From Mizuhopecten yessoensis (Eukaryota): DNA of 64,000 bases. The stretch covers positions 207,226-271,225 of the forward strand of contig NW_018479992.1 of assembly GCF_002113885.1 (NCBI RefSeq), given 5' to 3'. The notes under the pieces are model-generated. The model saw nothing but the letters and a program-made list of their open reading frames with translations, did no database searches and was not told where the DNA came from. Both the position numbers and the translations under genes were made by a program. Below, one piece after another: positions 12,940 through 61,680 of this stretch. Positions within the stretch are counted from its first letter, which is position 1. Each line of letters starts with the position of its first letter.

Positions 12940-13359
12940 TTACGTTGGTCGCCAACCAGCTTTGATTCTCTCTAACTTTTTTAGGTGTAGAGGGTTTAGG
13001 GAGAATGGTTCCTTGGTGAGATCAGTTTCGGACAACGTGGACAGGAAGTCTCCGTCCAGTTTTTCCTTCTCGCACAGTTTAGCGAGATCGGGAAGACCAC
13101 ATTGATGCAGACATTCCGTCAGATTCACAACGGAGAACGACTTGAACTCGGTCGGTTTCCCTGGGATTTCCGGCAGGGATTTGGAATTAGGTCTTACAGT
13201 ACCAACAGGCTTTGGTTTGGAACTCTTGTCTTTCCCTATGGACGACATATCCGGGATTTTATCCATTGCCATCGTTGGTCGCTCCACGGGTTCCGTGGCC
13301 AGTTCAGACAAGCTGGTTCTTGATCCCTCTTGCTTTTTCTTTCTTCCTCCAGTGAAAAA
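12940..13359 (-). CDS. Terminal SAM-domain exon of CABIT-SAM paralogue 1
   Basis: Acceptor tctatttttag at 13360, phase 0. Encodes ...FSVVNLTECLHQCGLPDLAKLCEKEKLDGDFLSTLSETDLTKEPFSLNPLHLKKLERIKAGWRPT*. Confidence 0.85.
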   Translation of the reverse strand, partial: FFTGGRKKKQEGSRTSLSELATEPVERPTMAMDKIPDMSSIGKDKSSKPKPVGTVRPNSKSLPEIPGKPTEFKSFSVVNLTECLHQCGLPDLAKLCEKEKLDGDFLSTLSETDLTKEPFSLNPLHLKKLERIKAGWRPT

Positions 13360-16300
13360 CTAAAAATAGAAGTACCCATCATTAATTTATTTCTTACTAT
13401 CCTGATGTTTTTCTGAATCCCTAACAGTGATGAGGTTGATTCCTATGTTTGAATAATATAACCAACGAACGGACTGTATTTCGTACTAACTATGACCCGG
13501 AACCGGAAACAGAATCGTTATAATAAAGTATAGTTTATGCATGTACATTTATTGTCCTTGTGGTGAAATACGATTATTTGTTTTCTACGCCTCGTGAAAC
13601 ATGATTTATCTCCGGAAAACAAAGTACGATGTTTTTGTACTACAAGGGCAATCAAATTTTATGACTGTATTTTTTATACCGAAATACATGTAGAATAAAG
13701 GCACAACAGTGAAGATGATCGGGCTTCTGCACCATTGTTCGTTACCGCTCTGAACTCATGTGATATGCCGTTTACTGCACACGTTCTGATTTAAAGAAAT
13801 GTGACATGGAAACTCGAGTGCGTGAGGGGAACATTATATTTGTTTCCCCGTCACATGATCAGTAAAAATATTATATATATGAGGTATAAATGATATCTCA
13901 ATTTACACGCGTTTATTTAGAAGCTAATTTAGTTTGTAATATTTGAAAAAAAAACGGTGAGCTTATATGATACCTACTTTAAAACCACCTTTCTTCTTTT
14001 TATCTTTGTCTTTATCCTTGTCCTTCTTTTTCGTATCTGAAAAACAAACACATTTGTGTAGCGGCCCTTTAGATTCTGATAATATTAGTAGACGAACATA
14101 TATTCAGTATCATCTTAAAAACCCCATTAAGGTTTTGGTTTTTAACTTGTACTTTTTATGTGAAACATGATTTGTTACATAAGTAAATGCTATTATTCGA
14201 GATAGCTCCGTATGTTTTGCCCTCTTCATTTGTCTCCTAGAACAGAAAGTCCATTTTATCTTATAGACCAAAGAAACATCTCCCTGCGACTTATTTCACT
14301 CAACTAGAAAACTTCTCCGTGTGTCGCATACAATACGGGTTTTCCTGTCTGCGTGGCTTATACGAGAAGAAGACCTCGCCAAATGTCTTATAGAACAAAG
14401 AGTCCTGAAAAAAACGAGTATTCTCTATATGTCTTGTACAACATGAAGATGACACACTCGATGCGATTAATCCTTACCTTTGTCTTCTTGAATGTCCAAT
14501 TCGTCGTATATATCTTCACCTGTAAACAGGTACCAACATTAAAATCAAGAAACTTGTTTTTTTTTTTGCGCTGGCAAAATCATATACAATATTTGAATTC
14601 GGTATATCCCAATGTCCATAAGTAGATGTAAATGTTTAGATACGTTTAATAAGTGTAAGACACTTAGTCACCAATGCACCTCTAGACCGTGTATATAGAT
14701 AACAGTTCCCGGTAGTTACAAATAAAAAGAATACAGAAACGGAAAAACCCCACCGGGACCAAACTCCATATTCACTGTATCAGTTTAAAGGCATTGTAAC
14801 CGGCTTCGTATTACATTGGTTTGCACGAACACAACGTTAAACTGGACGATTACAATAACAGTAAGTGTATGGTGCGCGACTTACTCTGTAACACTGCGTA
14901 GGGTCCATCGGCGCTATGTCGTAAGCTTTCGTACTCGCTGGCTTGTCCTGTTGGAGAAAAGTCGGACAGTGTCTCAAATAAAAATCATACACAAAAAAGA
15001 TAACAATCACTTTTTGTGGAAATAGAAAACTTGGATTATTTTCTAGCCCAACTATATCCGCTTGAAACAAAGCCTACTATTACCGTCTAGAAATATAGGG
15101 ACCTGACCTTAGCTAAGGTGTTTCGAGTAATTTTACACGTTTTAGGGGTTTATATCAATTATCATCATCGGGGGGTATTTTTACCTTAAATTGATCTAAG
15201 CCCCTAAAACGTGTAAAATTACTCGAAACACTTAAGTTTGATTAGGTCAAAAATAGCTGTAACTGATTCTCAGGCCTCTGTGTCTAGAAGGGGGGCCCCG
15301 ACCAGAACGTCAGTTTCCCACTCATAGGGTTTAGGAATTTGAACTCCGAACCAAAGTTTTACCTAGGTCATTGCTCCAAATTTTTCATCCTGAAAAAAAT
15401 TCGATTGTTTTTTTCTCCCACCTCGTATGTTGGGTTACGGTAAAAACTGACACCGATATTGCGAACAATGTAATAATTGTAGATTTCCTTGATAACATAC
15501 AAACTGGGGACCCATCTGTATTTTGGTGGTAGCTATTTTTCCTCTGATTAAAAATCATGTCACACGTCACTTTAAGTTTGTGTTACGTCAGTGACGTTGC
15601 ATTGCAGAACACCAGCTGACAAGACACATTTTAACGAGAAAATTCACTAATACACTTCTTAGTTATCACTATCAGATCAAGAATTACGCGTAATTATATG
15701 TGTCGCCTGTCCCGCTTTGTCAATATAATAAGCATTTGACATAGTTCATAAGGAAACGGACCTAAACGCAAAATCATAACATTGATTTTTTTTAAAGTCC
15801 AGAAATTTGAGGTTTTTACCCAAAAAATACAGAAATCGTAGAAATGCTAGTAAAGAGAGTAATGCATTCAGCTAAACATCCCATGATACACCTATGACCC
15901 AAGTTTGGTTGCGCTAGCATTTATACTTTGTCAGAAACAGCCTAATATGAAAGAGCTAAACGCAAAACCTTAGCGTTGAGGTTTTTTTTAAGTCCAGAAA
16001 TTTGAGGTTTTTACCCAAAAAATACAGAAATCGTTGAAATGCTAGTAAAGAGTGTAATGCATTCAGCTCCACTACCCATGCTTCATCTATGATCGAGGTT
16101 TTGTTGGTGTAGCTTTGTCAGAAACAGAGCTAAACGCAAAACCTTAACATAGTTGACGCCGCCGTCGCCGTCGAAAAAGCAACGCCTATGTGTCTTTCCG
16201 ACATCCGTCGTAGGCGACACAAAAATGTTATTATGGAACTTCTGTCACCGTGCAGATTAAAGGGACACGTCGCATTATTTCTTCTGCTATAATAGCATGT

Positions 16301-19300
16301 GGCATGTTCATGTGAGATAAGCTTTACCCGTCTAAGTACATGTATAACTAGTGAGTTAATTAACTTGATACAAAAGAAAACCTACCTTGTGCATCGGACT
16401 TTTTAGAGAGTTCGAATTTGGTATTTTTAATAGGTTCCTCATAGGCATCTGTTTCGAGTGGAGTTGGCACCAGGGGGCGTCCCGATATGTTTGTCCGATC
16501 TGTAATAATATAACCATTATATACACTTCCGGTATACCCATACCTCGGTGGTCCTGACTTGCAATGGAGACTAAGTTATGATAATCGCCAGGATGACCTG
16601 TAACATTCCGTCAGGTATACTCATCCCTCTCATTCATAGAACGTGCCTACGAGTCCCTACGCCACGCACGAATGAATGTGGACCTATCCGAATGGCTATC
16701 CTTCGTAAATAAGCTCACACGCACATCGGCACTCGAACCAACAACACTAAGTGATCAGTACTCTTTATACCATGCGTACAAGCAGCCTTTAGTAATGCAC
16801 GCATGGACATGACACATAACAATACATGTACCATACGTACCCACAACCTGTAGTGATACATGTACCATACGTACCAACAATCCTGAGTAATACATGTACC
16901 TTACGTATACGTACCCACACAACCCTTGGTTATACATATTAGATACGTAGCCACAACCCTTAGTTATATAGATACGATACGTACCCACAACCCTTATTGA
17001 TACATATACCATACGTATCCATATCCATAACCTTTAGTAATACATGTACCATGCGTACCTATAACCCATAGTTATACATGTACCATGCGTACCTATAACC
17101 CATAGTTATACATGTACCTTATACCTGTACCATACGTACCCACACAACCCTGATTAATAAATTAAATGTACCATACGTACCTACAACCTTAGTTATACAT
17201 GTACCTTACGTACCTATAACCATTAGTTATTCATGTACCTTATACATGAACCTTACGTACCCACACAACCCTTAGTAATACATTTACCATACGTACCCAC
17301 ACAACCCTGATTAATAAATTAAATGTACCATACGTACCTACAACCTTAGTTATACATGTACCTTACGTACCTATAACCATTAGTTATTCATGTACCTTAT
17401 ACATGATCCTTACGTACCCACACAACCCTTAGTAATACATTTACCATTAGTTATACATGTACCTTACGTACCTATAACCATTAGTTATTCTTGTTCCTTA
17501 TACATGATCCTTACGTACCCACACAACCCTTAGTAATCCATTTACCATACGTTCCCCCGCAACCCTGAGGTATACATGTACCATACGTCCCCACAACCCT
17601 TAGTAATACATTTACTATACGTACCCACACAACCCTGAGTTATCCATGTGCCTTCCGTACCCACAACCCTTAGTAATACACTTACAATACGTACCCACAC
17701 AACCCTGAGTTATACATGGACCTTACGTACCCACAACCCTTAGTAATACACTTACAATACGTACCCACACAACCCTGAGTTGTACATGTACCATACGTAG
17801 CCACAACCCTTAGTAATACATTTACATTACGTACCCACACAACCCTGATTTATACATGTGCCTTACGTACCTACAACCCTTAGTTATACATGTACCTTAT
17901 ACATGTACCATACGTACCTATAACCCAAAGTAATACATGTACCATCCGTCCCCACACAACCCTGAGTTATACATGGACCTTACGTACCCACAACCCTTAG
18001 TAATCCATGTACATTATACATGTACCATACGTCCCCACAACCCTTAGTAATACATTTACTATACGTACCCACACAACCCTGAGTTATCCATGTGCCTTCC
18101 GTACCCACAACCCTTAGTAATACACTTACAATACGTACCCACACAACCCTGAGTTATACACGTACCAAACGAACCCACAACCTTAGTAATACATCAACCC
18201 TTAGTAATACATTTACAATACGTACACAATACATGTACCATACGTACCCACACAACCCTTAGCGGTACACGTACCATACGTATCCACAACCCTAAGGTAC
18301 CTTATACATGTACCATACGTACCTATAACCCATAGTAATACATTTACAATACGTACACAATACATGTACCATACGTACCCACAACCATTAGTAATACATT
18401 TACAATACGTACCCCCACAACCCTGAGTTATACATGTACCTTACGTATCCACAACCCTTAGTAATACATGTACATTATACATGTACCATACGTGCCCACA
18501 ACCCTTAGTAATACATTTACATTACGTACCCACACAACCCTGATTTATACATGTGCCTTACGTACCTACAACCCTTAGTTATACATGTTCCTTATACATG
18601 TACCATACGTACCTATAACCCAAAGTAATACATGTACCATCCGTCCCCACACAACCCTGAGTTATACATGTACCAAACGAACCCACGACCTTAGTAATAC
18701 ATGTACCTTACGTTTTATGGGATACACACATGTATGCTTATGTAATTTGTGTAATCTAGCTCATTATTTATCTAACTGTTGTATAGCTAAAATGTAATAC
18801 CTGGGCTGACCATGCTGGTAGGGCTCTCCCCCACCGCTGGAAAGCTCGGGTCATCGTTCATTTAGAGCTGTTTCTGTGATAATAGTGGATTTAAAATGTA
18901 CATGAAAAACTTTCTTACCAATTTACAATTTATAGAACTATTTTATCATTGTTGTAAATAACGTACATTTTTTAATATGCTTGACCATATGGTAGACGAG
19001 TCTTTGACTCAATATGTAGTTTAAATAAAGACTATTATTAGTATTACCTTTTACGTACCTATAACCCATAGTTATACATGAACCTTATACCTGTACCATA
19101 CGTACCCACACAACCCTGATTTATACATGTACCTTACGTACATACAACCCTTAGTTATACATGTACCTTATACATGTACCATACGGACCTATAACCCATA
19201 GTAATACATTTACAATACGTACCCCCACAACCCTGAGTTATACATGTACCTTACGTAGCCACAACCCTTAGTAATACATTTACCATACATACCCACACAA

Positions 19301-22300
19301 CCCTGAGGTATACATGTACCATACGTACCCACAACCATTAGTAATACATTTACAATACGTACACACACAACCCTGAGTTATACATGTAACTTACGTACCC
19401 ACAACCCTTAGTAATCCATGTACATTATACATGTACCATACGTCCCCACAACCCTTAGTAATACATTTACATTACGTACCCACACAACCCTGATTTATAC
19501 ATGTGCCTTACGTACCTACAACCCTTAGTTATACATGTACCTTATACATGTACCATACGTACCTATAACCCAAAGTAATACATGTACCATCCGTCCCCAC
19601 ACAACCCTGAGTTATACATGTCCCTTACGTACCCACAACCCTTAGTAATACACTTACAATACGTACCCACACAACCCTGATTTATACATGTCCCTTACGT
19701 ACCTACAACCCTTAGTTATACATGTACCTTATACATGTACCATACGTACCTATAACCCAAAGTAATACATGTACCATCCGTCCCCACACAACCCTGAGTT
19801 ATACATGTTCCTTACGTACCCACAACCCTTAGTAATACATTTACCATACGTACCCACACAACCCTGAGTTATACATGTACCAAACGAACCCACAACCTTA
19901 GTAATACATGTACCTTACGTTTTATGGGATACACACATGTATGCTTATGTAATTTGTGTAATCTAGCACATTATTTATCTAACTGTTGTATAGTTAAAAT
20001 GTAATACCTGGGCTGACCATGCTGGTAGGGCTCTCCCCCACCGCTGGAAAGCTCGGGTCATCGTTCATTTAGAGCTGTTTCTGTGATAATAGTGGATTTA
20101 AAATGTACATGAAAAACTTTCTTACCAATTTACAATTTATAGAACTATTTTATCATTGTTGTAAATAACGTACATTTTTTAATATGCTTGACCATATGGT
20201 AGACGAGTCTTTGACTCAATATGTAGTTTAAATAAAGACTATTATTAGTATTACCTTTTACGTACCTATAACCCATAGTTATACATGTAACATACGTACC
20301 CACAACCCTGAGTAATGACATGAACCGTACGTCACCACAACCCTGAGTAATACATGTACCATGCGTACCTATAATCCATAGTTATACATGTACGTCCCCA
20401 CAACCCTGAGTAATTATATGAACCTTACGTCCCCACAATCCTGAGTAATACATGTACCATGTGTACATACAACCCATAGTTATATATGTGACATACGTAC
20501 CTATAACCCATAGTTATACATGTAACATACGTACCCACAACCCTGAGTAATAACATGGACCTTACGTACCCACACACCCCTTAGTGATACATGAATCTTA
20601 CGTACCCACAACCCTTAGTAATACATGTAACATATGTACCAACATCCCTTAGTGACACATGTACCATACGTACCCACACAACCCTTAGCGGTACACGTAC
20701 CATACGTATCCACAACCCTTAGTGATACACGTACCATACGCAACCACAACCCTGAGTAATACATGTACCATACGTACCCACACAACCCTTAGTGGTACAC
20801 GTACCATAAGTATCCACAACCCTTAGTGATACACGTACCATACGTATCCACAACCCTTAGTGATACACGTACCATACGTCCCCACACAACCCTTAGTGAT
20901 ACACGTACCATACGTATCCACAACCCTAAGGGATACACGTACCATACGTCCCAACAACCCTGAGTAATACATGTACCATACGTACCCACACAACCCTTTG
21001 TGGTACACGTACCATACGTATACACAACCCTTAGTGATACACGTACCATACGCACCCACAACCCTGAGTAATACATGTATCATTCGTACACACACAACCC
21101 TTAGTGATACACCTACCATACGAAATCGGATCCCATATATAGTATATAAACAGAGTGTCTAGTATTTAAAGTTTAGATATGTTTCATCTCTCAATTTATT
21201 CAAGTTGGGTATTTATTTCTCGGGATATGAGTTCTTATGTTACTCTACATCATAAAGAAATGCCAACACATGTAAGTGTAATAAATGTCTCGTTCAACGT
21301 TAAATAACACTTTGAAGAAAATGAACACAGTAATTATGGTACAAAATGGACCGTACCCACATTCCCGTCACTGTAGGTATCTATATGTATATCATCACCC
21401 AGTGACTGCTTGATTGAATATACATCTTTCAGTTTTTTATCACCCAGTGACTGCTTAACTACAGAAAAAGACTACGTACGTTTGGCATGACTTCACATAA
21501 AGAATCTGTACAAATATGTTCATGCATTTAGATGTATACAACTGTACATGGATGTGGTATGGGATGTTTAAAATGTCTTTGTTAAACTATAGATCATATA
21601 TAGTTGTACGGATACAGTATACTGGGTTTGAGTTTAATATCAAGATGTTGATGAAGGGATCCAGAAACAGGTCATTATTTATCAAACTGTATGCTGAATA
21701 AAGTCTTTACATAAACACAGGCACCCGTACTCATAATGAACTGTTTATCTGACACAAACACAACAGTTTTATATCATACACTGTACCTGCGGTCTGGCTG
21801 TCGTATTGATCGAGTGATATTTCAGTGAAATATGACCATGTGTTTCCCTTGGTTATCTATTCATTATTCAGTTATCTAACTGTTTTGTAAACATGACAGA
21901 GCAGTGGAACATATTTAGAGAACATTAGACGCATGCTAGTAACACAGGTTATATACAGTAATAGCGAGGAAATACATATCTAATTACCTGGTTATATACA
22001 GTAATAGCGGGGCTATACATATCTAATTACCTGGTCATATACAGTAATAGCGGGGATATACATATCTCATTACCTGGTTATATACAGTAATAGCGGGGGT
22101 ATACATATCTAATTACCTGGTTATATACCGTAATAGCGGGGATATACATATCTAATTACATGGTTATATACAGTAATAGCGGGGATATACATGTCTAATT
22201 ACCTGGTTATATACAGTAATAGTGGGGATATACATATCTAATTACCTGGTTATATACAGTAATAGCGGGGATATACATATCTAATTACCTGGTTATACAC

Positions 22301-24704
22301 AGTAATAGTGGGGAAATACATATCTAATTACCTGGTTATATACAGTAATAGCGGGGATATACATATCTAATTATACATATAATTACCTGGTTATATACAG
22401 TAATAGCGGGGATATACATATCTAATTACTTGGTTATATACAGTAATAGTGGGGATATGCATATCTAATTACCTGGTTATATACAGTAATAGCGGGGATA
22501 TATATATCTCATTACCTGGTTATATACAGTAATAGCGGGGATATACATATCTAATTACCTGGTTATATACAGTAATATCGGGGATATACAGATCTAATTA
22601 TATATATAATTACCTGGTTATATACAGTAATAGCGGGGATATACATATCTAGTTACCTGGTTATATACAGTAATAGTGGGGATATACATAGCTAATTACC
22701 TGGTTATATACAGTAATAGCGGGCATATACCTATCTAATTACATGGTTATATACAGTAATAGCGGGGATATACATATCTAATTACCTGGTTATATACAGT
22801 AATAGCGGAGATATACATATCTAAATACCTGGTCATATACAGTAATAGCGGGGATATACATATCTAATTACCTGGTTATATTAACATAAATACGTCCTAA
22901 TAATTATTGTCATGTGTTGCTCACCTGTCGAGGGCGTTGGCTTGCGGGGGACGTTCCTCACCGGTACATCCGGCGCAGGGGGCGGGGATGGGGAGGGTGT
23001 TGAAGGGGCGATGTGAAGGTCATCCGTCTGTATAGACAGCCAGGAAGGGGGACTTGACCTGCCTGAACAATGTTTAGAAAATCAGTATAAAAGTTGTCTC
23101 AGTTAGAAGATATCATCGTGATTCCAATAATTACGAAACAATTTTGTATAAAAATCGACTATATAATTGGATCATACATCTATACAAATTATATGTCAAT
23201 ACCTGGCTCGTCAATCAATTCAAACTGTCACAGCTGTCTTGTGTAATTCCACTTCATGCAATGACATTGTACTTATAACAGGTACTGGTCATTCAAGTTA
23301 ACGCAGATTTATTTCAATGTCTTTAGTGGTAGAACATGCCAGGATAATTATCCAATGTCAAAGAAAAAGAAAAGTCCGCTTGAGTGTCCACTATATTTTA
23401 AATACAGTTTGTAAAATTTAAAGGCGCCATTATTATTAATATTAGCCATACCAGAGGACAGACTTACCAGAACTTCCGCTACTGGGTCTTGGCGATTCTT
23501 TTGATTTTGTTTTGTTTTTGTCTTTGTCCTTTTTGTCCTTCTTTGCGTTTTTGTCTTTCGGAGATTTTGGGCCGTCATCCTTGGTTGGGGATTTGGCACC
23601 AGGAAGAGACAACTGAATCGGAGATGTCGGTGTTTTGGACCTGGGGGACAGTTTTCGTTCGTCCCTGTCCGGGGGGAGAGGTGGTGGCGTGGCCGCGGGA
23701 GAGGGGACAGGATCCTGTTTGATTGGGGATGGTTTGACGGTAATCCATGTATTGTCTTTCTGTATGTGTATGTTAACTTTACTCGTCAAGTCGACATAAA
23801 AACTTTCCTGAATCAGTGTTCTGTCCACTGTCTGGGGGAACAGTTTAGCCATTGTCGATTTATACGTTTTGTCGTTTTTGTCTGCAGTGACTTTGACCTT
23901 TACATCATTAACAGCAGCACTGGCTTGGAGAGGAAATAATGCCAGCGTGGGCTGGACCTTCTTTTTAGCAGTTCCGGGTCCACATGTGGGTGACACTGAC
24001 GGTCTCAGAAGACCCACAATGACCTCATGGTTTGAAACCCGACTCAGCTTCAATGTGTCACCGATGACGTCACACTTCTCCCCATTCAGGTCAGTTTTGG
24101 CTACCGTTTGAAACTGCGGGTCAAGAAATCGGACAGTTTGCGGTAAATGTAATCTGTCGACGACTTCCTGTAATGTATACGTCGTGTCGTCTGACAGCAA
24201 CCGGAACCTGATTTTATCCTTGGTGGTGAGGACGATTGTCTTATCATTGAACTTACAGTAAAGGTTTGCCGTTCCTATTGCCTTATCCAGTTCGAGCTGG
24301 GCTCCGGTCGGTACCGCCAGAGGTTTGCCGCTGCCATCCCCCGTTGAGGAGAAGCCATCCTCAACCTTTACATACCGCGGGAAGTCCTCTATCAGGTCCT
24401 TCAGCGTCGTGTATATCTTGGTTCCCGCATCCTCGCGAGCTATCCTCACCTTCCCCGCGTATCCCAGGGGTATGAATATTTCGTCCGATTTACCCGTACT
24501 ATCGGAACGTTTGGACACAAAACATGCCGCTACCTTTTTAATGGCTATTCCGAAGTCGAGCTTTAACAAATAACCCTCCGAAAAGTCGGCGTGTGTACAT
24601 CCATTCACAACCTTAACCATACACGGTAGTCCCAGCTTGTTCACGGCTTCTTTGGCCGAGACCTGACCGTCCGTCCACACTATAGCAGAGTCTAAGTCCG
24701 CCAT
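12940..24704 (-). CDS. CABIT-domain / proline-rich / SAM-domain adaptor, GAREM/THEMIS-like paralogue 1 (~669 aa)
   Basis: Exons 23468-24704 (CABIT + PPPLPP + Lys-rich), 22925-23062 (Pro-rich), [optional 16544-16597], 16386-16499 (AYEEP), 14478-14519 (IYDEL), 13978-14036 (poly-K/D) and 12940-13359 (SAM ending GWRPT*). All GT-AG and phase-consistent. CABIT hallmarks: W..., LPCMVKV..G, IPLGYAG, FPRYV, LYC, YTLQEVV..LPQTV. The GWRP SAM end matches GAREM. Confidence 0.85.
15118..15231. repeat. Perfect 31-bp inverted repeat with a 52-bp spacer (foldback/MITE-like)
   Basis: 15118-15148 gtgtttcgagtaattttacacgttttagggg is the exact reverse complement of 15201-15231. Confidence 0.85.
15675..16226 (+). 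mobile_element. Non-autonomous Helitron/Helentron(HINE)-like element with internal ~180-bp tandem subrepeats
   Basis: Subterminal inverted motif tgtgtcgcct (~15699) / aggcgacaca (~16212), terminal A-run, gacgccgccgtcgccg tract, and internal repeats starting ctaaacgcaaaa at ~15762, ~15956 and ~16130. The family assignment is from architecture only. Confidence 0.55.
16800..21122. repeat. ~34-36-bp minisatellite in an intron of paralogue 1, interrupted twice by the same ~330-bp insert
   Basis: Unit tacatgtaccatacgtacccac(ac)aacccttagtaa. Inserts at ~18712-19045 and ~19919-20252. Confidence 0.95.
21945..22880. repeat. ~43-bp minisatellite
   Basis: About 21 copies of taattacctggttatatacagtaatagcggggatatacatatc. 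Confidence 0.95.
23468..24704 (-). CDS. CABIT-domain first coding exon of paralogue 1
   Basis: 1237-nt open exon from ATG 24704 to the donor G|gtaagt at 23468/23467. The ORF-track tail (KSVLWYG) is intronic. Confidence 0.88.
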
Positions 24705-27598: not shown

Positions 27599-27740
27599 TT
27601 CCCGAATTTTCTAGACGTATATGGTACTACGTACGTTCTGTCACCTGAAACCTATTGATAGTTACATGTACGTTCTATAGTTACTAGCCGTCCCTGGACG
27701 TTTCTCGCGTTTTCTCCAGTAACCGTCGTTAGTATATAAG
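27599..27740 (+). promoter_or_regulatory. Heat-shock promoter of sHSP copy 1: HSE and TATA box
   Basis: TTCccGAAttTTCtaGAC at 27599-27616 (alternating nGAAn units) and TATATAAG at 27733-27740, ~185 bp upstream of the ATG. Confidence 0.75.
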
Positions 27741-27923: not shown

Positions 27924-29012
27924 ATGTTCACACTGAGAGCTGCTCCTCATCACTATCCGGACTTTTGCTGGGGTCGACGACCATCAACTTGCAGACAGAC
28001 ATTCACCCCAAGACAAATGCCTCGGTATACCTACCCCTGGGACAGCTGCCTTTTTCAAGACTGGACGGACACCATGCTTCTACCCCTCTTTGAGTCTATG
28101 ATGAACCTTAAATCTGACAAACAGTATGGACAACACAAACGTCCTAAGGCCAAGAACTGGGTACGCAAACTGAATCTTAGAGGATATGGACCAGATGACG
28201 TCACGATCACCACCAAGGCGGGGTGTGTCCTCATCAAAGCCCGTCGCATAGAAGGGGAGGGGGACTGTTCTGACGTTTACGAGAGTAACAGATCCGTGAC
28301 TATACCGGAAGGGGTCGACGTCTGCTCCATGAAAAGTCACTTCTCATCAGATGGGGTTCTTACTATCATAGCAAATGTCACAATCGAGGACGAAAATAAG
28401 GAGTCTCTGGAGGTGCCTGTGGAGATCGTGAAGGAAAAACAAAAGTCCCTACCAGCTCAGGACGGAAAAGGGGACTCAAAAGGAGACACACAGAATAGCG
28501 ACGCCTTTGTGTATCCCGAGAGCGTTGGAAGCTTTATTGGGAAAGAGGACTTTGAGGTTGTTGAGCCTGAAAGGACAAATACCGACGGTGACCTTAACCT
28601 TCGGGGAACTGATCTCACAATTGACTTCGACCAATCTCTAACTGAAAATGGAGATGCAGGTCTGTGTCCTAATGAAGAACTTGAGATCCACCACGAGGAT
28701 GTGGAGACACATGTCGAGGAGGCGGTGGAGAAGTGTGAGGAGGATGGGAAGAGTGTAATCGACGAGACACAGAAGGCGTTCAAACTCTCCTTCAACAAAG
28801 ACCAGCTCGCCGGCGATGACGTCAAAGTGCTAGTCAAGGATAACTGTTTACTGGTCAAGTCCCAGAGTAAGACGTGTGAGGATGGGGTATCGCGATCAGT
28901 GTATTACGCCACACAACACACGTTACCAGACGACATTGACGTCAGCAAACTCTCGTGCTCAAAGAGATCTGACGGAGAGTTTCTTGTCACAGCTCCATAT
29001 ATAAGGAGTTAG
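27924..29012 (+). CDS. Intronless small heat-shock protein with two alpha-crystallin (HSP20) domains and an acidic linker (p40/major egg antigen-like), 362 aa
   Basis: ACD1: LNLRGYGPDDVTI...VLIKA...RSVTIPEGVD..SMKSHFSSDGVLTIIA. ACD2: FKLSF...AGDDVKVLVKDNCLLVK...TLPDDIDVSKLSCSKRSDGEFLVTAP. HSE/TATA promoter upstream. Confidence 0.9.
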   Translation: MFTLRAAPHHYPDFCWGRRPSTCRQTFTPRQMPRYTYPWDSCLFQDWTDTMLLPLFESMMNLKSDKQYGQHKRPKAKNWVRKLNLRGYGPDDVTITTKAGCVLIKARRIEGEGDCSDVYESNRSVTIPEGVDVCSMKSHFSSDGVLTIIANVTIEDENKESLEVPVEIVKEKQKSLPAQDGKGDSKGDTQNSDAFVYPESVGSFIGKEDFEVVEPERTNTDGDLNLRGTDLTIDFDQSLTENGDAGLCPNEELEIHHEDVETHVEEAVEKCEEDGKSVIDETQKAFKLSFNKDQLAGDDVKVLVKDNCLLVKSQSKTCEDGVSRSVYYATQHTLPDDIDVSKLSCSKRSDGEFLVTAPYIRS

Positions 29013-31778: not shown

Positions 31779-32867
31779 ATGTTCACACTGAGAGCTGCTC
31801 CTCATCACTACCCGGACTTTTGCTGGGGTCGACGACCATCAACTTGTAGGCAGACCTTCACCCCAAGTCAAATGCCTCTGCACACGTACCCCGGGGACAG
31901 CCGACTGTTACAAGACTTGACGGACACCATGCTACTCCCCCTATTTGAGTCTATGATGAACCTGAAATCTGAAAAACAGTATGGACAACACAAACGTCAC
32001 AAGGCCAAGAACTGGGTACACAAACTGAATCTTAGTGGATATGAAGCAGATGACGTCACGATTACCACCGATGCGGGGTGTGTCCTCGTCAAAGCCCGTC
32101 GCATAGAAGGGGAGGGGGACTGTTCTGACGTTTACGAGAGTAACAGATCTGTGACTATACCGGAAGGAGTCGACGTCTGCTCCATGAAAAGTCACTTCTC
32201 ATCAGATGGTGTTCTTACTATCATAGCAAATGTCATAATCAAGGACGAAAATAAGGAGTCTCTGGAGGTGCCTGTGGAGATCGTGAAGGACAAACAAAAG
32301 TCCCTACCAGCCCAGGACGGAAAGGGGGACTCAAAAAGAGACACACAGAATAGCGACGCCTTTGTGTATCCCGAGAGCGTTGGAAGCTTTATTGGGAAAG
32401 AGGACTTTGAGGTTGTTGAGCCTGAAAGGACAAATACCGACGGTGACCTTAACCCTCGGGGAACTGATCTCACAATTGACTTCGACCAATCTCTAACTGA
32501 AAATTGAGATGCAGGTCTGAGTCCTAATGAAGAACTTGAGATCCACCACGAGGATGTGGAGACACATGTCGAGGAGGCGGTGGAGAAGTGTGAGGAGGAT
32601 GGGAAGAGTGTAATCGACGAGACACAGAAGGCGTTCAAACTGTCCTTCAACAAAGACCAGCTCGCCGGCGATGACGTCAAAGTGCTAGTCAAGGATAACT
32701 GTTTACTGGTCAAGTCCCAGAGTAAGACGTGTGAGGGTGGGGTATCGCGATCAGTGTATTACGCCACACAACACACGTTACCAGACGACATTGACGTCAG
32801 CAAACTCTCGTGCTCAAAGACATCTGACGGAGAGTTTCTTGTCACAGCTCCATATATAAGGAGTTAG
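31779..32867 (+). pseudogene. sHSP copy 2 with nonsense codon GGA>TGA at 32505-32507 (possible 242-aa single-ACD product)
   Basis: Colinear with copy 1. The reading frame continues intact after the stop to the normal TAG at 32867. Confidence 0.8.
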
Positions 32868-53007: not shown

Positions 53008-56000
53008 CTGCATAAAAATAATTATATATAAAGATAATAACACAAAACATCAATTAAAGTACACGGTAAATATAAAGAAAGAAAAAGACAAAGGTGTTCT
53101 CCCTAGATGTTTATCGGGGGATGTGTTTATTTTGAAACAAGCACTGCGTTTAGACAACAACAAAATACAAAAAAATGATGACGTCATGATACACTATGAC
53201 GTCATTATACAACCTATCGGCAAAATCACACCAAACAATGCAAGGCAAAATTTGTGAACCAACAGACAACAGACAAAACACAAAAAAGGACCATCTCGGA
53301 TTATTAACTCAAAATAATCATACATTCTTGTGCAATAGATAAATTGCAGGTAACTTCTACATATGACGCTACATCAGATACTATATGAAGAGAGTCAAAA
53401 TAGTAAATGTTGAACAGTATATTTAAAACAAAACTTAAATTGTTCAAACAGCACAAATAGTTATTCAAAATGAATAAATAAGTAAATAATAAAAATAACG
53501 AATGAATGTGATATCTTTGATGCTTTACTAATGTCTGTAACTTTAGGGAGTTAGATATATCTTGGATGTATTTTGTTGTTGTACATTTCAAATAAATCCG
53601 TCAGTTTATCATGCAAATTGTCACCAATAAAGAGGCTGATGTGGAACTCTTCTGGAAAGGGAATACATGCTACAGTAAGATAGCATATAATTAACATTAA
53701 TAAAACATCCTCTCACCACTTTGGTTGCTGTTTTGGTGGTGGTCTCCCTTAGTCGCACCTCACTTTTGCCCTTTTCCTTGTCTGCATCTAGAACATGCAA
53801 CCGTTACACTTTAAAAATCTCTCTTGAAAGGTGTTCCAACAAAGGGAGCATTCAACAATACTGTTCTCATTCTATTTTTTATGGAATTAGTGAATAATTT
53901 AAACAAACTGGTTTCGACATTTAAACGGTATGAGTGTAATATAACATTTTAGACTTAAGGGTTATTCTATTAATAGACAGTGCGTTACCTGTAAGACGTA
54001 ATACTTCTTCTATGAATAGACAGTTTATTTCATGTAAGACGTTAGACTTGTTCTATAAATAGGCAGTATATTACCTGTAAGACGTAAGACTTGTTCTATA
54101 AATAGACAGTGTATTACCTGTAAGACGTAAGACTTGTTCTATAAAAAGGCCTCTGCTTCAATGATATCCAGATAGTTACATTTACCTTCTAGACATAAGG
54201 GCTCTGCTTCAATGATATCCAGATAGTTATATTTACCCTCTAGCCCTTAGGGCTCTGCTTCAATGATATCCAGATAGTAATATTTACCTGCTAGACATAA
54301 GGGCTCTGCTTCAATGTTATCCAGATAGTTATATTAACCATCTAGACATAAGGGCTCTGCTTCAATGATATCCAGATAGTTACATTTACCTTCTAGACAT
54401 AAGGCCTCTGCTTCAATGATATCCAGATAGTTATATTTACCATCTAGACATAAGGCCTCTGCTTCAATAATATTCAGATAGCTATATTTATCTTCTAGAC
54501 ATAAGAGCTCTGCTTCAATGATATCCAGGTAGTTACATTTACCTTCTAGACATAAGGGCTCTGCTTCACTGATATCCAGATAGTTATATTTACCCTCTAG
54601 CCCTTAGGGCTCTGCTTCAATGATATCCAGATAGGTATATTTACCTGCTAGACATAAGGGCTCTGCTTCAATGATATCCAGATAGTTATATTTACCATCT
54701 AGACATAAGGGCTCTGCTTCAATGATATCCAGATAGTTATATTAACCTTCTAGTCATAATGGCTCTGCTTCAATTTTATCCAGATAGTTATATTTACCAT
54801 CTAGACATATGGGCTCTTCTTCAATGATATCCAGATAGTTACATTTACTTTCTAGACATAAGGGCTCTGCTTCAATGATATCCAGATAGTTATATTTACC
54901 TTCTAGACAAAAGGCCTCTGCTTCAATGATATCCAGATAGTTATATTTACCATCTAGACATAAAGGTTCTGCTTCAATGATATCCAGATAGTTATATTTA
55001 CTATCTAGACATAAGGGCTCTGCTTCAATGATATCCAGATAGTTATATTTACCATCTAGCCATAAGACCTCTGCTTCAATGATATCCAGATAGTTATATT
55101 TACCTTCTAGATATAAGGCCTCTGCTTCAATGATATCCAGATAGTTACATTTACCTTTTAGACATAATGGCTCTGCTTCAATGGTATCCAGATATTTATA
55201 TTTATCTTCTAGCCCTCAGGGCTCTGCTTCAATGATATCCAGATAGTTATATTTACCTTCTAGACATAAGGGCTCTGCTTCAATGATATCCAGATAGTTA
55301 TATTTACCATCTAGACACAAGGGCTCTTCTTCAATGATATCCATATAGTTACATTTACCTTCTAGACACAAGGCCTCTGCTTCAATGATATCCAGATAGT
55401 TATATTTACCATCTAGACATAAGGCCTCTGCTTCAATAATATTCAGATAGTTATATTTACCTTCTAGACATAATAGCTCTGCTTCAATGATATCCAGATA
55501 GTTACATTTACCTTCTAGTCATAATGGCTCTGCTTCAATTTTATCCAGATAGTTATATTTACCATCTAGACATATGGGCTCTTCTTCCATGATATCCAGA
55601 TAGTTACATTTACCTTCTAGACATAAGGCCTCTGCTTCGATGATATCCAGATAGTTATATTTACCATCTAGACATAAGGCCTCTGCTTCAATAATATTCA
55701 GATTGTTATATTTACCTTCTAGACACGAGGGCTCTGCTTCAATGAATCCAGATAGTTATATTTACCTTCTAGACATAAGGCCTCTGCTTCAATGATATCC
55801 AGATAGTTATATTTACTATCTAGACATAAGGGCTCTGCTTCAATGATATCCAGATTGTTATATTTACCTTCTAGACATAAGGCCTCTGCTTCAATGATAT
55901 CCAGATAGCTATATTTACCTTTTAGACATAAGGGCTCTGCTTCAATGATATCCAGATAGTTATATTTTCCTTGTAGACAAAAGGGCTCTGCTTCAATGAT

Positions 56001-59000
56001 ATCCAGATAGTTATATTTACCTTGTAGACAAAAGGGCTCTGCTTCAATGATATCCAGATAGTTATATTTACCTTCTAGACATAGGGGCTCTGCTTCATTG
56101 ATATCCAGATAGTTATATTTACTTTCTAGACATAAGGGCTCTGCTTCAATGATATCCAGATAGTTATATTTACCTTGTAGACAAAAGGGCTCTGCTTCAA
56201 TGATATCCAGATAGTTATATTTACCTTCTAGACATAAGGCCTGTGCTTCAATGATTTCCAGATAGTTATATTTACCTTCTAGACATAGGGGCTCTTCTTC
56301 AATGATATCCAGATAGTTATATTTACCATCTAGACATAAGGGCTCTGCTTCAATGATAGCCAGATAGTTATATTTACCTTCTAGACTTAAGGGCTCTGCT
56401 TCAATGATATCCAGATAGTTATATTTACCTTCTAGACATAAGGGCTCTGCTTCAAAGACTCTAAGATAGTCTTCCTCTTCGTCTTCGTCCTTATTCTCTG
56501 TACAATAAATAACATTACCTTTATTTTCTTATTATTGTTACAGATAATGTTGGAAACATGAGACCTTTTATTAACAAAGAACTACCATTTCTCCCACAAG
56601 TTTCCTCCTGCCCAACTCATTGGATAAACCTGCTACATGTATTATTATTTCATTTTTCCTTAAATTCGAAGAGTTAAAAGACTATATATACAAGTTTATA
56701 AATTGTCAAATCGTAATTAAATAGACTCGTTCACAAAAATAACATGAAACATAAAAAAGAAATTGCTTGTTTATGATCAAAATATTTAGGGTAATATATG
56801 CTTAGTTATACGTGCGTTTAATTACTATTTGTTTGTGATACGATTTCATCATTAAAAATAAAATTGGCATAACACAGTTTTCATAACCTAATTCACATAA
56901 CTTGTAAAGGAGGATCCCTCCAAGAAGTATTTGAATTGTAATGTAGTCTGACAAAGAGTGCAATTAAACAATTAGCTCTATTTCAAACTTATTACTAATA
57001 AGACACCAAAGATCGTCTCTAAAGTATCAGCTTTTGTATCATGAAGGACGACGTGTGTTGTAATGTCAGTGTGTAAAATACTACAGAAATGACATAACTC
57101 AATAAGATTGGTAGATCGTATGTCGACACACAACCTTACCTCATTATTGATCCTGCTCAAGTGTTCGAGAAACCTCGACGCTGATTTCTATAAAATATGT
57201 GGACAACTTTAATATAATTTATCTTGTCTAAGTCGAAACGAATAATTTGATAATGATGTGGTGGATATGAGTGTTATATCCTATCAGTGGGAAATACTTG
57301 TACTTAGGACCGTTACATATGTCCGTATCATATTTGTATTATCGAAAAAGGTCTGAAATCAAGAGGATCTGTCATTATCGACTAACCGACACCGCCCCTT
57401 TCTCAGAGTACATAGCTACTAAAGATTCTAGTGTTTCTATTTGTTCTATCGAAACATCAATCGACCTGGAGGTTACGGGAATGTAACCGAAAAAGCATAA
57501 AGGTATTTACTATTTGGTACCTGGACCTCAAGCCCTTTATCTCTGTGGCTATCAACAGCGATTTCTTGTACTCTTAAATTGTATTTAAACAGTACACAGA
57601 CGCCGCCTCTAATGTAACATCTATGGAAGAAAGGATATAATTCTTGAACAAGTTTAACTGTTCATGAATAACCCGAGTTCTTAAAGGAAAAAAAAAAAAA
57701 AAACACACAGAAATATTGCAATCCCGTACAAAATGTCAAGATATACCGAAAATATCAATGACATAGGGCATTCCAGACCTAAAACCTTCAATGTTCCAAC
57801 ACATGAATTTGAAATTAAAGTTGGTAATTGTTCTCGAGTTGTTTCTGAGAAAGCATTATGCTACGACTCGCGTCCATGAACACCATTTGGCCAAGACGAG
57901 GGATTTTCGATACGTTTTGTGATGACATCATCGTCTATTACATTCGTGTAGTCCAATCAAGGATATCACTTACTACACTAACTCCGTGAACGCAGTGTTT
58001 GGTCGTCTAGAGAACGCATTTCAACTGGTTTTTGAAACCTTCGTCGTTGAATTTCTGGACGATTCCTTCATAGTCTGATATCTTAATCAAGGTTTCGTCA
58101 ACTCGTCATTTGGTATTCTGAGCTAATTTTAACGCTTCCGACAGATATTGTAATTAATTTCCTGTAGTTTCTCTCTAGTCATCCAGTTCTGCAGATTGTA
58201 CATTTTCTTTCTCAAGTTAATTTATTTTACTCTGCATAGACTTTACCTCTTCAGAGTGTTTCTTTGCTCTTTCTCTTACGGTTTCTTTGTCCGTTTGTAC
58301 GGTGTTCAGTTGTGTATTCACATTTCAAGGTCGGTAGACAGAGATTTTTAGTTGGTTTTCAAGAGTTGTGTATATCTGTCTGTATGGACACAACAATTCC
58401 ATGTAGAGCTGTCATACCAGGTACTTTCTCTACAGCAGCAGGTATTTTCAGTGTTTTCTTCCCGTGGACACGACCTCACTGAATTCTTCTGTACATTATC
58501 CAACAACAACTCGAAGGAGAAGAACCAGATAGACAAGATAGTTGTATGAGATATAAATCGTATATATGCTATTATAATGAAGAGTTAAACTATTACAAGA
58601 CGACATACGACCTGTTAGACATTATAATACTCCTTCAAACCAAGAGGTATAGGATTGGAAATCCCAAAGAATGGTTTTCAAATTGAATACAACCTTTCCC
58701 TATTATAGATCCATGGGGATTCATTCCAATCACCAGAAATAGCACAGAAACGATAAAACGTCTGTATTAGACATAAGGGATGTACTAGTATTACACGGTA
58801 CGTTTACCTTCTAAACATAAAAGATGTACTTTTATAAAATGATATATATTTACTTTTTAGATATAAGAGCTTTACTATATTACACGGTATACTTACCTTC
58901 TACATATACATGCTGTACTGGTATATTAACCTTCTAGACATAAGGGCTGTACAAGTATTACACGGTATATTAACCTTCTACATATACATGCTGTACTGGT

Positions 59001-61680
59001 ATATTTACCTTCTAGACATAAGAGCTGTATTAGTATCACACGGTATATTTACCTTCTCGATATAAGAGCTGTATTAGTATTACACGGTATATTTACCTTC
59101 TCGATATAAGAGCTGTATTAGTATTACACGGTATATATACCTTTTAGACATAAGAGCTCTGCTTCGTCTATTTCCAGATAGTCTCCCTGTGTTTCTTCGT
59201 CCTTTTTCACTGTACGAAGGAAACAATTTTCTAATTAGTTACGGATTATGATGAAAAGCTAAAAAACGCTTCTTTTAATAGCGAACTACCAATTCTCCCA
59301 CAACCACAAAATGTTTCCTCAAGCCCCACTCATTAGATAATCTTGCTAAGAGTTACCTTTTAGAGCTATACCAGTAAATCACGGTATATTTACCTTCTAG
59401 ACTTAAGGACTGTACAAGTATTACACAGTGCATTTACCTTCTTAACATAAAAGATGAAAAGCCTCAGGTTTTACCAAATTTGAAAACCCCTCGGGAAGAA
59501 TTTCTCTATTCTACACCCCTGAGTATGAAAGAGTCTTATATAGTATATCATGGTATATATTACATTTTATACATAAGAGCTGTAATAGTATTACATGGTA
59601 TATATTTACCTGCTAGACATAAGAGCTATACCAGAATTACACAGTATATATTTACCTTCTCGATATAAGAGCTGTACTAGTAAAGCACGGTATATTTACC
59701 TTCTATACATAAGAGCTGTACTAGTATTACACGGTATATTAACCTTCTCGATATAAGAGCTGTATTAGTATTACTTGGTATATATTTACCTTCTAGACAT
59801 ACGAGCTCTGCTTCGTCTTTTTCCAGATAGTCTCCCTTTTTTTCTTCGTCCTTTTTCACTGTACGATGGAAAAATTTCCTAATTAGTTACGGATTATGAT
59901 GAAAACCTGAAAATATTTTTGTTGATAATGAACTACTATTTCTCCCACAACCACAAAATGTTTCCTCATCCCCAACTCATTGGATAATCTTGAAAAAAGT
60001 TGGTAAGCATTTTGAGTACCAACTGGAGGGTAACATTAATCAACAATGCTTAACGACGTCATTTCCCATTCCGACATCATAGTTCATTGGCATTGTTTCC
60101 GCGATCGGAAACAGGAATAATGCCCAAAGAGAAACATAGGGTTTTCTAGATATACTATGTGAACGTTGGGGGAGAACAATACCATTTTTAAACTAAGTCT
60201 TGTTGGTTAATTTAAATGATAAAAGACACTTTGTAAACATCATGTCTTTATACAAAATGAAAATTGACTAACTGGAGTTAGATAGTCATGTATCCCTCGT
60301 ACGGGTACCTTGATATACAGATGTACATATCCTTTTACAATAAAAATCAACGATTGATTTCTTGATGCTTAGGAAAGAAAAGCAGGCTGTATAACATAAT
60401 GTGTATTGGTTTGTGTATTATTGAAAACGGAATTCATTTTGAGGAAACATGAAGTCTGAGTATCTTTGAGCAAACAAGACAGGATTTGTTTAAAACACTG
60501 ATTTTTATTTAAATGTGAATAGGTGAAAAAAAGTAGGGTAATGTTTTGGAGACTGATCATTGTTGAATACAAAAAGCGACAAATATGTAGTCAACTAGAA
60601 TTATTGATTACCTTTCGTTCTGGGTGGTCTTGGAGGAACGAACTCTATTTCGTCATAATGAACAAATGTAGCTTTCGGTGTCTTTAGAAAGTCCACATAT
60701 ATTGTCCCATCAATGTTTTCTTCACTGATAATATTCATCTGTGAGAAGTTCCTCGCCAATACTAGCTCGTATTGATCGTCATCCTCTACGTCCAGTGGTA
60801 CCCTCACCTCGATCTCTCTGGCTGTCGGACTGTCCAGTGGAATAATGATAAGAGTTCTTTGACATAAACTTTGGGTCTTTAGCTCCTCCTGCTCTGGAGG
60901 TTTGTAGTGACCAATGATTGTTTTCTGCTCTATAAGTTTCTTAATTTTCACGGTGCCCTCAAATATTCTTGAATGCTCAACCGCCTCTTGTATGTTGGTC
61001 GTTACTAGTTTTGGACCGCTTTCCTTCATGAATGTGACGTACTGGGGCAGAGGGAACCTTTTGGCGACCTCTTCCAGAGTGTAATAAGTTTTGTCTGGTA
61101 ACAAGAAAAAACTACATGTGTCATCAAGGTCAAACACCAGTTTTATCCTATTCGTGCTATTTTGGAGATCGTCATCTATCATGTAACACACTAGGCCCTC
61201 GTCGGGAATTTTTCTGTCGACTTCAATAATCGATTTACTTTGAACGCTAATATTGTTTTTTGATACAAAGGAATCTACAACTTTCACGTATCTCGGGAGA
61301 TCTTTCAGCACTTCACTGATGTTGTGGTAGATCTTTGTGCCGGACTCTGGGTGGACTATTTGGACCACACCCTTGTACCGTAGAGGGATGGTAAAGTCCA
61401 CTGTTTTCTCGGCGTACCCATGCTCGTCCTCACGAATTACGCTTGACATCCTGTTTCGGCCTCTGTAGTCCACACAGCACGCCACTACTTTCGGTATCGA
61501 TTTCACCGAGTCAAATTTTAGGAGATCATCTTGAGAAAAACTCTCTGAATCATTGTCACTGCAGATGCCCTCTTCCACCTTGACCAATAAGGGTAAATCG
61601 AATTCCTCCTCGTTTATAATCTCTGCAATGCTATAGGTCTTATCCGACCATTGCACTGTAGGTGATCCACCCGCCGCCAT
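52705..61680 (-). CDS. CABIT / tyrosine-motif / SAM adaptor, GAREM/THEMIS-like paralogue 3 (~549 aa with all three 69-nt exons)
   Basis: Exons 60612-61680 (CABIT, ends PPRPPRTK), 59790-59858, 59141-59209, 56429-56497 (three homologous 69-nt DYL exons), 53717-53787 and 52705-53007 (SAM ending KGWLPQ*). All GT-AG and phase-consistent (1,1,1,1,0). Confidence 0.85.
53972..54148. repeat. ~43-bp short tandem repeat (~4 copies)
   Basis: ttacctgtaagacgtaagacttgttctataaatagacagtgta repeated. Confidence 0.8.
54150..56428 (-). repeat. 51-bp minisatellite (~45 copies) made of an exon 3' end plus splice donor
   Basis: Minus-strand unit GTAAATATAACTATCTGGATATCATTGAAGCAGAGCCCTTATGTCTAGAAG, directly continuing from exon 56429-56497. 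Confidence 0.95.
57730..58560 (-). mobile_element. Decayed LINE fragment (stop-riddled coiled-coil ORF1-like region and start of an APE endonuclease)
   Basis: Minus strand reads ...ETVRERAKKHSEEVKSMQSKIN*LEKENV..., then SWPNGV..., then NFKFMCWNIEGFRSG, an endonuclease-like 'xxWNxxG' start motif. Confidence 0.5.
58760..59789 (-). repeat. ~44-bp minisatellites trailing the 59141 and 59790 exons, containing exon end and donor
   Basis: Minus-strand unit gtaaatataccgtgtaatactaatacAGCTCTTATGTCTAGAAG at ~58760-59140 and ~59350-59789. Confidence 0.8.
60612..61680 (-). CDS. CABIT-domain first coding exon of paralogue 3
   Basis: ATG at 61680 (gctATGg; MAAGGSPTVQWSD, homologous to paralogue 2 MEAGRSPSLTWSD) to the donor G|gtaatc at 60612/60611. 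The ORF-track start at 61731 is not an ATG. Confidence 0.88.

Follow-up and report, generated by a model that had tools for sequence, protein, structure and literature searches.

A tandem array of putative GAREM/THEMIS-type adaptor genes in the scallop Mizuhopecten yessoensis, with middle regions that probably diverged by exon duplication and loss

Three co-oriented genes in the window (the whole stretch of 64,000 nucleotides that was analysed) form a tandem array, and sequence comparison supports reading them as GAREM/THEMIS-type adaptors with the layout of GAREM i.e. CABIT domain, proline-rich sequence (PRS) and SAM domain. We put a probability of about 0.7 on the reading that all three encode cytosolic scaffolds of GAREM layout acting behind tyrosine kinases, with middles that derive from one ancestor via exon duplication and loss. 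The array is real but is mostly an ordinary gene-family expansion, as its layout is already known and the family is wide. The original prediction, made from the sequence alone, had proposed a cluster of GAREM/THEMIS-like CABIT-SAM adaptors, and the CABIT-PRS-SAM layout in a tandem array agrees with this.

Results

The CABIT domains and the proline-rich sequence

RefSeq proteins of Mizuhopecten yessoensis matched all three genes, which lie on the minus strand (as do all features below unless noted), and the motifs named in the original prediction were all found where it had placed them. The Pfam CABIT profile (PF12736, curated cut-off 24 bits) was detected in the large first exon of each gene, scoring 38.9 bits in paralogue 1 (23468..24704; fitted to a 690-aa RefSeq protein, pLDDT 88.6), 46.6 bits in paralogue 2 (47997..49059; present in a spliced contig) and 35.4 bits in paralogue 3 (60612..61680; RefSeq fit and predicted model). 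Each protein contained one matched stretch, at the N-terminus, and therefore a single CABIT. The core Cys of the LYC/LVC motif is C150, C165 and C165 in paralogues 1, 2 and 3, respectively. In a family profile the LvC was in register with the Cys of both THEMIS CABIT1 and CABIT2, and this profile matched THEMIS with an E-value of 6.7e-21, with the core Cys and the PRS aligned; the expected single-exon CABIT with a core Cys was thus recovered in every gene. Among aligned relatives the Cys was kept in 82 of 115, although the orthologues of paralogue 3 from Pecten and Argopecten lacked it in that column. The CABITs of paralogues 2 and 3 were 61% identical and that of paralogue 1 was 32% identical to them, which bears out the closer relationship expected of the former pair. 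Behind the CABIT, in the same exon, paralogues 2 and 3 carry PPRPLR and PPRPPR (both PxRPxR), and paralogue 1 carries PLPPDR and a Lys-rich linker; a motif search did not find PxRPx[KR] in paralogue 1.

Fold comparison of the predicted models identified an SH3-like head around the core Cys (residues 92-171 and 119-194, Z up to 6.9), a match to the head only and not to the whole CABIT; such a head is described for THEMIS CABIT2 in bioRxiv 2024.10.01.616165. Foldseek gave no match for either model at E 0.001, wide fold searches had no THEMIS chain among the matches listed, and neither a single-sequence PDB search nor Rfam gave a match. No 19-residue window exceeded a hydropathy of 1.55, indicating that the proteins have no membrane segment.

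Relatives and age of the array

The CABIT family is broad (505 clusters), and two Atlas clusters (150 and 86 members) consist largely of proteins from Mollusca. According to automatic annotation, the nearest named relatives are from oyster, pearl oyster, mussel, freshwater mussel and limpet, and vertebrate GAREM was not among the 13 named of the 20 relatives looked up. The array is common to other scallops and comprises at least five lineages; the expansion predates Mizuhopecten yessoensis. In a tree built without vertebrate GAREM or THEMIS, lineages 3 and 4 were retained across scallop genera. Full-length proteins of Pecten, Argopecten and Ylistrum were considered as orthologues of paralogue 3 and rejected, since the tree groups them with paralogue 4. 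A SAM-like end was present on 59 of the 76 CABIT matches of at least 500 aa.

The SAM domain and its splicing

The predicted terminal SAM exon held up by profile and predicted fold but not by Pfam: unlike the CABITs, none of the three last exons reached the SAM cut-off of 23 bits, and the best score, 15.5 bits for SAM_1, was seen only in the last coding exon of paralogue 1 (12940..13359; SAM-like domain aa 618-690). Profile searches nevertheless matched solved SAM domains, in particular 2DKZ (LOC64762), which we take to be GAREM1 and which was the best solved match of the SAM profile, with E-values of 1.4e-6 and 7.7e-17 (next SAM 5.7e-8). The last coding exon of paralogue 3 (52705..53007) encodes a conserved helix (aa 455-466) and a SAM domain (aa 476-546) whose predicted model matched SAM domains with Z 9.0 and rmsd 2.5 over 66 aligned positions. 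SAM pLDDT in the predicted models was 93-98.

Joining of the SAM exons to the CABIT exons was confirmed by spliced contigs for paralogue 2, whereas for paralogues 1 and 3 it is given by RefSeq models only. In paralogue 2 one contig (X3) spans all three joints, including 43556/45717, and X2, from a second study, has a matching loose end at the SAM joint. In this assembly a stop codon at 45771-45769 interrupts the frame before the SAM exon (43315..43556, entered in phase 1) is reached, and the RefSeq model ends there; the stop is found in this assembly only, and the position is a Gln codon in all four runs. Paralogue 2 is not SAM-less, and the public gene model is corrected to a full frame of 542 codons.

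Divergence of the middle regions

As predicted, most middle exons are of phase 1-1 (9 of the 11 internal coding exons, in exon models that agree with the RefSeq proteins at every letter). In paralogue 1, all fitted to RefSeq, these are a Pro/Ser-rich exon of 138 nt (22925..23062), a 114-nt exon with YEEP (YxxP; 16386..16499), a 63-nt exon in which a motif search found the ITAM-like YESL-x7-YAVL (14885..14947) and a 42-nt exon with IYDEL (14478..14519); a 59-nt poly-Lys exon of phase 1-0 (13978..14036) follows. Paralogue 2 has a 168-nt exon 2 with PPPLPPKK and YSN (47206..47373; phase 1-1, in a spliced contig and the RefSeq fit) and a 156-nt exon 3 (45717..45872; phase 1-1) that is a diverged duplicate of it, the duplicate unit being 230 bp at 66% identity. 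In paralogue 3 the predicted DYL repeats proved to be three duplicate acidic-DY exons of 69 nt, i.e. copy 1 (59790..59858; phase 1-1, missing from RefSeq isoform X2), copy 2 (59141..59209; 64 of 69 letters as in copy 1) and copy 3 (56429..56497; 52 of 69 letters as in each other copy), in units of 650 bp with introns (83% and 78%), ahead of a 71-nt exon 5 of phase 1-0 (53717..53787; RefSeq fit). The 51-bp minisatellite of 45 copies behind the third of these (54146..56455, unstranded), however, is intronic and is built from the end of copy 3 and its donor site. Its variant codons (8 synonymous, 34 missense and 4 stop, against 32:110:11 possible) indicated no coding constraint, and it was rejected as a coding extension. 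A candidate 54-nt exon in paralogue 1 (16597-16544, DYHNL) was also rejected, its acceptor being weaker than those of 6 chance pseudo-exons in 10 kb.

The middles had been attributed to symmetric-exon shuffling of unrelated modules, and this was not supported: only 4 of 66 middle-exon pairs were related, all of them within-gene duplicates (z <3 in the other 62), and tandem duplicates account for 5 of the 11 internal exons. The middle of paralogue 3 aligned in order to that of its sister, the gene-4 lineage (31.7 bits, matched by 0 of 300 shuffles), and was therefore inherited and not imported; an oyster middle likewise aligned in order to the gene-4 lineage (19.1 bits, 0 of 300 shuffles). The middle of paralogue 1 gave no alignment to the gene-4 lineage, all 300 shuffles scoring equally. 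Against the ancestral middle, paralogue 2 exon 2 gave a weak, low-complexity match of 6.1 bits and exon 3 gave none; this paralogue also lacks the conserved helix, of which there is a possible intronic trace (1% of intronic frames score equally). Paralogues 1 and 3 both have a 1-0 exon ahead of a phase-0 SAM exon, and one ancestral phase-1 intron combined with duplication would produce an identical phase pattern. The likely history is that the three middles started from a single ancestor with several motifs and came to differ as phase 1-1 exons were duplicated in tandem or lost.

Putative docking motifs and the ITAM-like exon

Acidic-Tyr, PxRPx[KR] and helix motifs occurred in 18, 10 and 7 of 33 full-length relatives, compared with 1.2, 0.8 and 0.0 expected. 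The motif sets differ between the scallop genes: YxxP and three YxxL, two of them at ITAM spacing, in paralogue 1; PxxPxK and one YxN in paralogue 2; and one ancestral acidic-Tyr site present three times, one copy being skippable, in paralogue 3. Across four scallop species all four Tyr of the paralogue 1 middle were invariant, as was the Pro of YEEP, compared with 12 of 73 positions overall. The pattern YxxL/I-x6-8-YxxL/I was present in three of the four scallop orthologues, the fourth having 9 residues and a Val; the residue three before the first Tyr is Glu in three of the four and Ala in Mizuhopecten yessoensis, which has Glu at -1. Shuffling gave a chance of ∼0.001 per protein for a motif that was noticed post hoc. 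The strict pattern is rare, occurring in 3 of 150 representatives, one of which is the paralogue-1 cluster.

Variation and a likely antisense RNA in paralogue 2

Exon 3 of paralogue 2 has a 9%-divergent haplotype with pN 0.095 and pS 0.087. Positive selection was not supported, as pN equals pS, and conversion from exon 2 was rejected because, of 14 letters, 4 matched exon 2, 6 the reference and 4 neither. One run (X1) contained spliced plus-strand RNA over paralogue 2 with two GT-AG introns (46938..47304 and 47382..47704, plus strand), which is likely to be antisense to this gene; the skips in X1 are these introns and not deletions. The 13 reads from raw RNA run X21 and the 15 from X24 fell within repeats and at the 3' end, and none covered the coding exons of paralogue 2.

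Discussion

Like the scallop genes, GAREM1 and GAREM2 (FAM59A/B) have one N-terminal CABIT of ∼340 residues, a proline-rich region, Tyr motifs in the middle and a C-terminal SAM; PMC4082722 describes GAREM as one CABIT, a PRR and a SAM. The IYDEL of paralogue 1 resembles the LPpYEEL of GAREM1 given in PMC8086153. Unlike GAREM1/2, the scallop genes are arranged in tandem, with five or more lineages, have modular and partly duplicated middles and, in paralogue 1, include an ITAM-like pair. They share with THEMIS, THEMIS2 and THEMIS3 a CABIT with a core Cys and, in paralogues 2 and 3, a PxRPx[KR] directly behind it; however, THEMIS has two CABITs and no SAM whereas the scallop proteins have one CABIT and a SAM, so they are not THEMIS proper.

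By analogy with these proteins, a Grb2/SH2 scaffold role downstream of tyrosine kinases is likely. In paralogues 2 and 3 the PxRPxR that closely follows the CABIT would, as in THEMIS and GAREM, bind the C-terminal SH3 of Grb2, for which PxRPxK is a ligand reported in PMC13381594, and the adaptor-Grb2 complex would be brought to a phosphorylated receptor. Phosphorylation of the middle tyrosines would create docking sites for SH2 proteins, the SAM would serve for oligomerisation, and each paralogue would keep its own docking set.

Assembly of the middles from exons of unrelated genes would fit the prevalence of phase 1-1 exons, the lack of likeness between genes in the exon comparison and the absence of an alignable ancestor for the middle of paralogue 1. 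We nonetheless consider it highly improbable, as nearly half of the internal exons are within-gene duplicates, the middle of paralogue 3 was inherited in order, a 1-0 exon precedes the phase-0 SAM exon in both paralogue 1 and paralogue 3, and duplication around an ancestral phase-1 intron explains the phases equally well. A further alternative, in which selection is relaxed on paralogues 2 and 3 as superfluous tandem copies and their middles drift with little meaning, is also decidedly unlikely. The equal pN and pS of the exon 3 haplotypes, the assembly stop, the lost helix with its possible intronic trace, the likely antisense RNA and the several relatives modelled without a SAM speak for it; but all four runs read through the stop position, sense-spliced contigs come from two studies, lineages 3 and 4 persist across scallop genera and the SAM domains are predicted with high pLDDT.

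The family also offers a different role. Drosophila Serrano (Sano) is described in PMC2776533 as an invertebrate THEMIS-family member that is cytoplasmic and binds Dishevelled; it works with planar-polarity proteins, and its likeness to the scallop genes is by family description and not by sequence. A corresponding role in epithelial polarity and tube shape via Dishevelled, instead of receptor-kinase or immune signalling, is improbable given that the scallop layout is that of GAREM and that the conserved Tyr motifs and Grb2-type PRS favour phosphotyrosine signalling. The GAREM-layout scaffold behind tyrosine kinases thus remains our preferred reading.

An ITAM-spaced YxxL pair suits a tandem-SH2 enzyme of Syk or SHP type. 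Oysters have an ITAM receptor, CgIgR, and a two-SH2 kinase, CgSyk, according to PMC6994640, and this module and paralogue 1 share the YxxL-x6-8-YxxL spacing; the oyster ITAM, however, is on a receptor tail, whereas paralogue 1 lacks any membrane segment. It is conceivable, though unlikely, that the soluble, GAREM-type paralogue 1 acquired a functional ITAM with its 63-nt exon and recruits scallop Syk, which would couple a CABIT protein to an immunoreceptor-style kinase in a mollusc, separately from what THEMIS does in T cells, and that the other genes of the array form a set of rapidly changing connections, adjusted through the number of Tyr-exon copies, through divergent alleles of an exon and through silencing of paralogue 2 by an antisense RNA.

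The function of the CABIT domain is still debated and, to our knowledge, work on it to date has been confined to mammalian THEMIS and GAREM. With a lone CABIT and natural variation in docking motifs, the scallop proteins offer simple constructs for the CABIT's share in Grb2 and phosphatase binding and, if the ITAM-like exon works, they would provide an invertebrate link between CABIT adaptors and Syk.

Three GAREM-type genes in the window

The three large minus-strand open reading frames have 100% matches among the RefSeq proteins of Mizuhopecten yessoensis, and the genes have therefore already been annotated automatically: paralogue 1 (12940-24704; 690 aa, labelled zonadhesin-like), paralogue 2 (43315-49059; LOC110442008, 444 aa) and paralogue 3 (52705-61680; LOC110442013, 549 and 526 aa). 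Paralogue 4 (LOC110442011, 382 aa) is located outside the window. We found no published work on these genes, as neither the three LOC identifiers nor the GenBank tag occurred in the main texts searched, and no mollusc CABIT publication was among the matches listed by a literature search that covered mainly open-access journals.

All of the motifs in the original prediction were found where they had been placed, and its CABIT assignment held, with all three large exons passing the Pfam cut-off. A deep family profile of 115 relatives matched human THEMIS (E 6.7e-21); in the alignment, LvC of the profile falls on the Cys of each of the two THEMIS CABIT domains, and the profile's proline motif on THEMIS PPRPPK. 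All three genes have the core Cys, as do 82 of the 115 profile rows; the paralogue 3 orthologues of Pecten and Argopecten lack it in that column. In the predicted structures an SH3-like head surrounds this Cys in both CABIT models; THEMIS CABIT2 has been described with a comparable head (bioRxiv 10.1101/2024.10.01.616165).

The terminal SAM domains that had been proposed were recovered by profile match and predicted fold, but not by Pfam: the last exons missed the Pfam SAM cut-off (weak match in 1/3 in a first test and 4/9 in a wider one) and the full-length window proteins gave no Pfam SAM match. A nine-sequence SAM profile had as its best match 2DKZ (LOC64762), which we take to be GAREM1 (E 1.4e-6; next SAM 0.032), and the deep profile matched 2DKZ with E 7.7e-17. 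The SAM region of the paralogue 3 model was predicted with pLDDT 93-98 and superimposed on SAM domains with Z 9.0 and rmsd 2.5 (66 aligned). Paralogues 1-3 are real genes of the GAREM type.

A short conserved helix motif lies ahead of the SAM domain in the window (52958-53007, minus strand) and in relatives; seven of the 33 full-length relatives contain it (0.0 expected), and a helix is predicted at 455-466 of the paralogue 3 model. The Potamilus protein P0122 has a C-terminal SAM of the same subtype and no CABIT match.

Gene models and transcripts

Exon models, fitted to the RefSeq proteins, gave 7, 4 and 6 coding exons in paralogues 1, 2 and 3, with GT-AG introns throughout and phase 1-1 in nine of the 11 internal exons. 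The predicted joining of CABIT to SAM exons was seen for paralogue 2: a 2,395-nt contig of sequencing run X3 joins 49060-47997, 47373-47206, 45872-45717 and 43556 onward, and run X2, from a separate study, has identical exon ends. Runs X1-X3 are presumed to be RNA, which the spliced joints support. The corresponding joins of paralogues 1 and 3 rest on RefSeq models. A complete 593-aa CABIT-SAM relative is encoded by two Logan contigs (1,819 and 2,058 nt). The RefSeq isoforms of paralogue 3 are distinguished by single short blocks, and so are those of relatives in Pecten and Argopecten, a pattern that fits with skippable symmetric exons.

The public model of paralogue 2 ends at an in-frame stop (45771-45769). 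All four runs covering exon 3 (45717-45872), including both haplotypes of run X17, have a Gln codon at this position, which makes the stop either an assembly error or a rare allele represented in this assembly; the full frame has 542 codons and extends into the SAM domain.

Exon 3 also occurs in a divergent form. X1 and one X17 haplotype carry as many as 14 differences from the reference over its 156 letters, compared with 54 over the 2,964 letters of four flanking intron pieces (Fisher p 4e-6, the exon having been picked post hoc). Within 45787-45868 X1 has 13 differences in 82 letters, 11 of them common to one X17 haplotype. The residue is altered in 10 of the 13 changed codons of the exon, and pN equals pS between the haplotypes. 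This divergence may reflect either an old allele or an extra copy that has not been seen. The X1 haplotype also has an insertion of >255 letters at 43572-43575, just upstream of the acceptor of the paralogue 2 SAM exon.

X1 contained no sense joints of paralogue 2. It showed two GT-AG introns on the plus strand and, over the paralogue 2 introns, a contig depth of up to 265. A spliced antisense RNA over paralogue 2 (42700-49280, plus strand) is therefore likely in this one run, whose contigs give no direct strand.

Age of the array and origin of the middles

In a tree of 33 CABIT regions, hand-picked from 178 proteins, paralogues 1 and 4 each group with Pecten, Ylistrum and Argopecten orthologues (100/98 and 100/97) and paralogue 3 with those of Pecten and Argopecten (97/95). 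Paralogue 2 falls inside the 2-3-4 clade without placement within it, Ylistrum and Argopecten form a fifth lineage, and a single origin of all scallop copies appears in only 44% of bootstrap trees. Neighbouring locus numbers and contig records, rather than DNA, suggest that the array is syntenic among scallops. The wider family comprises 505 clusters; the 13 named among 20 looked up are from molluscs, a brachiopod, echinoderms and a soft coral.

Four tandem intronless small heat-shock genes (27924-40548, plus strand), each with two Hsp20 domains, lie between paralogues 1 and 2. They are 95-99% identical, and in this assembly the frame is intact in copy 1 alone. Long tandem arrays (50, 34-36, 43, 26 and 42 bp) occupy 7897-11646, 16821-22881, 51156-52135 and 62350-63363, the 42-bp array containing an open frame of 198 aa that matched nothing in Pfam.

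Symmetric-exon shuffling had been proposed for the middles, i.e. the regions between CABIT and SAM exons. Among 66 pairs of 12 middle exons (11 real and one candidate; 300 shuffles), four were related (z 15-26; 0/300 shuffles), each inside one gene, and the other 62 had no similarity (z < 3). The three acidic-Tyr DY exons of paralogue 3 lie in duplicated units that contain intron DNA (516/621 letters identical; third unit ~78%), and two exons of paralogue 2 share a duplicated unit (142/216 letters). Residues 403-476 of paralogue 3 align in order with paralogue-4 lineage middles (31.7 bits); an oyster middle also aligns (19.1 bits), and the pearl-oyster alignment was not significant (14/300). 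The paralogue-4 lineage middle opens with a PPPLPPKK-type block resembling paralogue 2 exon 2 (6.1 bits, low complexity). The within-gene duplicates and the in-order alignment of the paralogue 3 middle lead us to replace shuffling with duplication and loss. The simplest reading of these sequences is that an ancestral middle would have had a proline block, acidic Tyr and helix ahead of SAM. Paralogue 3 would have retained and then triplicated the acidic Tyr; paralogue 2 would have retained and doubled the proline block, losing the helix, of which its intron holds a possible trace, through a new acceptor. The paralogue 1 middle does not align to the proposed ancestor, and may therefore have arisen by exon import.

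Every DY exon is followed by its own minisatellite, made from the 3' end of the exon and the donor site (54146-56455, 58845-59158, 59541-59807). GTAAAT is retained in most 51-bp units, so that these may provide alternative donors, though unselected ones.

Docking motifs and proposed function

GAREM combines a single CABIT with a proline-rich region and a SAM domain (PMC4082722); the proline region binds Grb2, and there is a SHP-type site, LPpYEEL (PMC8086153). In THEMIS, PxRPxK binds Grb2 SH3C with help from the CABIT domains (PMC13381594; PMC3931654); its place is taken by PxRPxR in paralogues 2 and 3 and by PxxPxR in paralogue 1. By analogy, the scallop proteins would be scaffolds that travel with Grb2 to phosphorylated receptors, each presenting its own set of tyrosine sites. 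Serrano, of the same family, is put to a different use (PMC2776533).

Across four species all four Tyr and three of the four +3 residues of the paralogue 1 middle are invariant, compared with 12/73 positions overall. One 63-nt exon (exon 4, 14885-14947) encodes an ITAM-like YxxL-x7/8-YxxL pair in three of the four species (chance ~0.001 each by shuffling, for a motif picked post hoc in non-independent species). Oyster possesses an ITAM receptor and Syk (PMC6994640); besides Syk, a tandem SH2 of the SHP2 type would also be a suitable partner for this pair. The main points of interest are this ITAM-like exon, the corrected paralogue 2 gene model and the likely antisense RNA.
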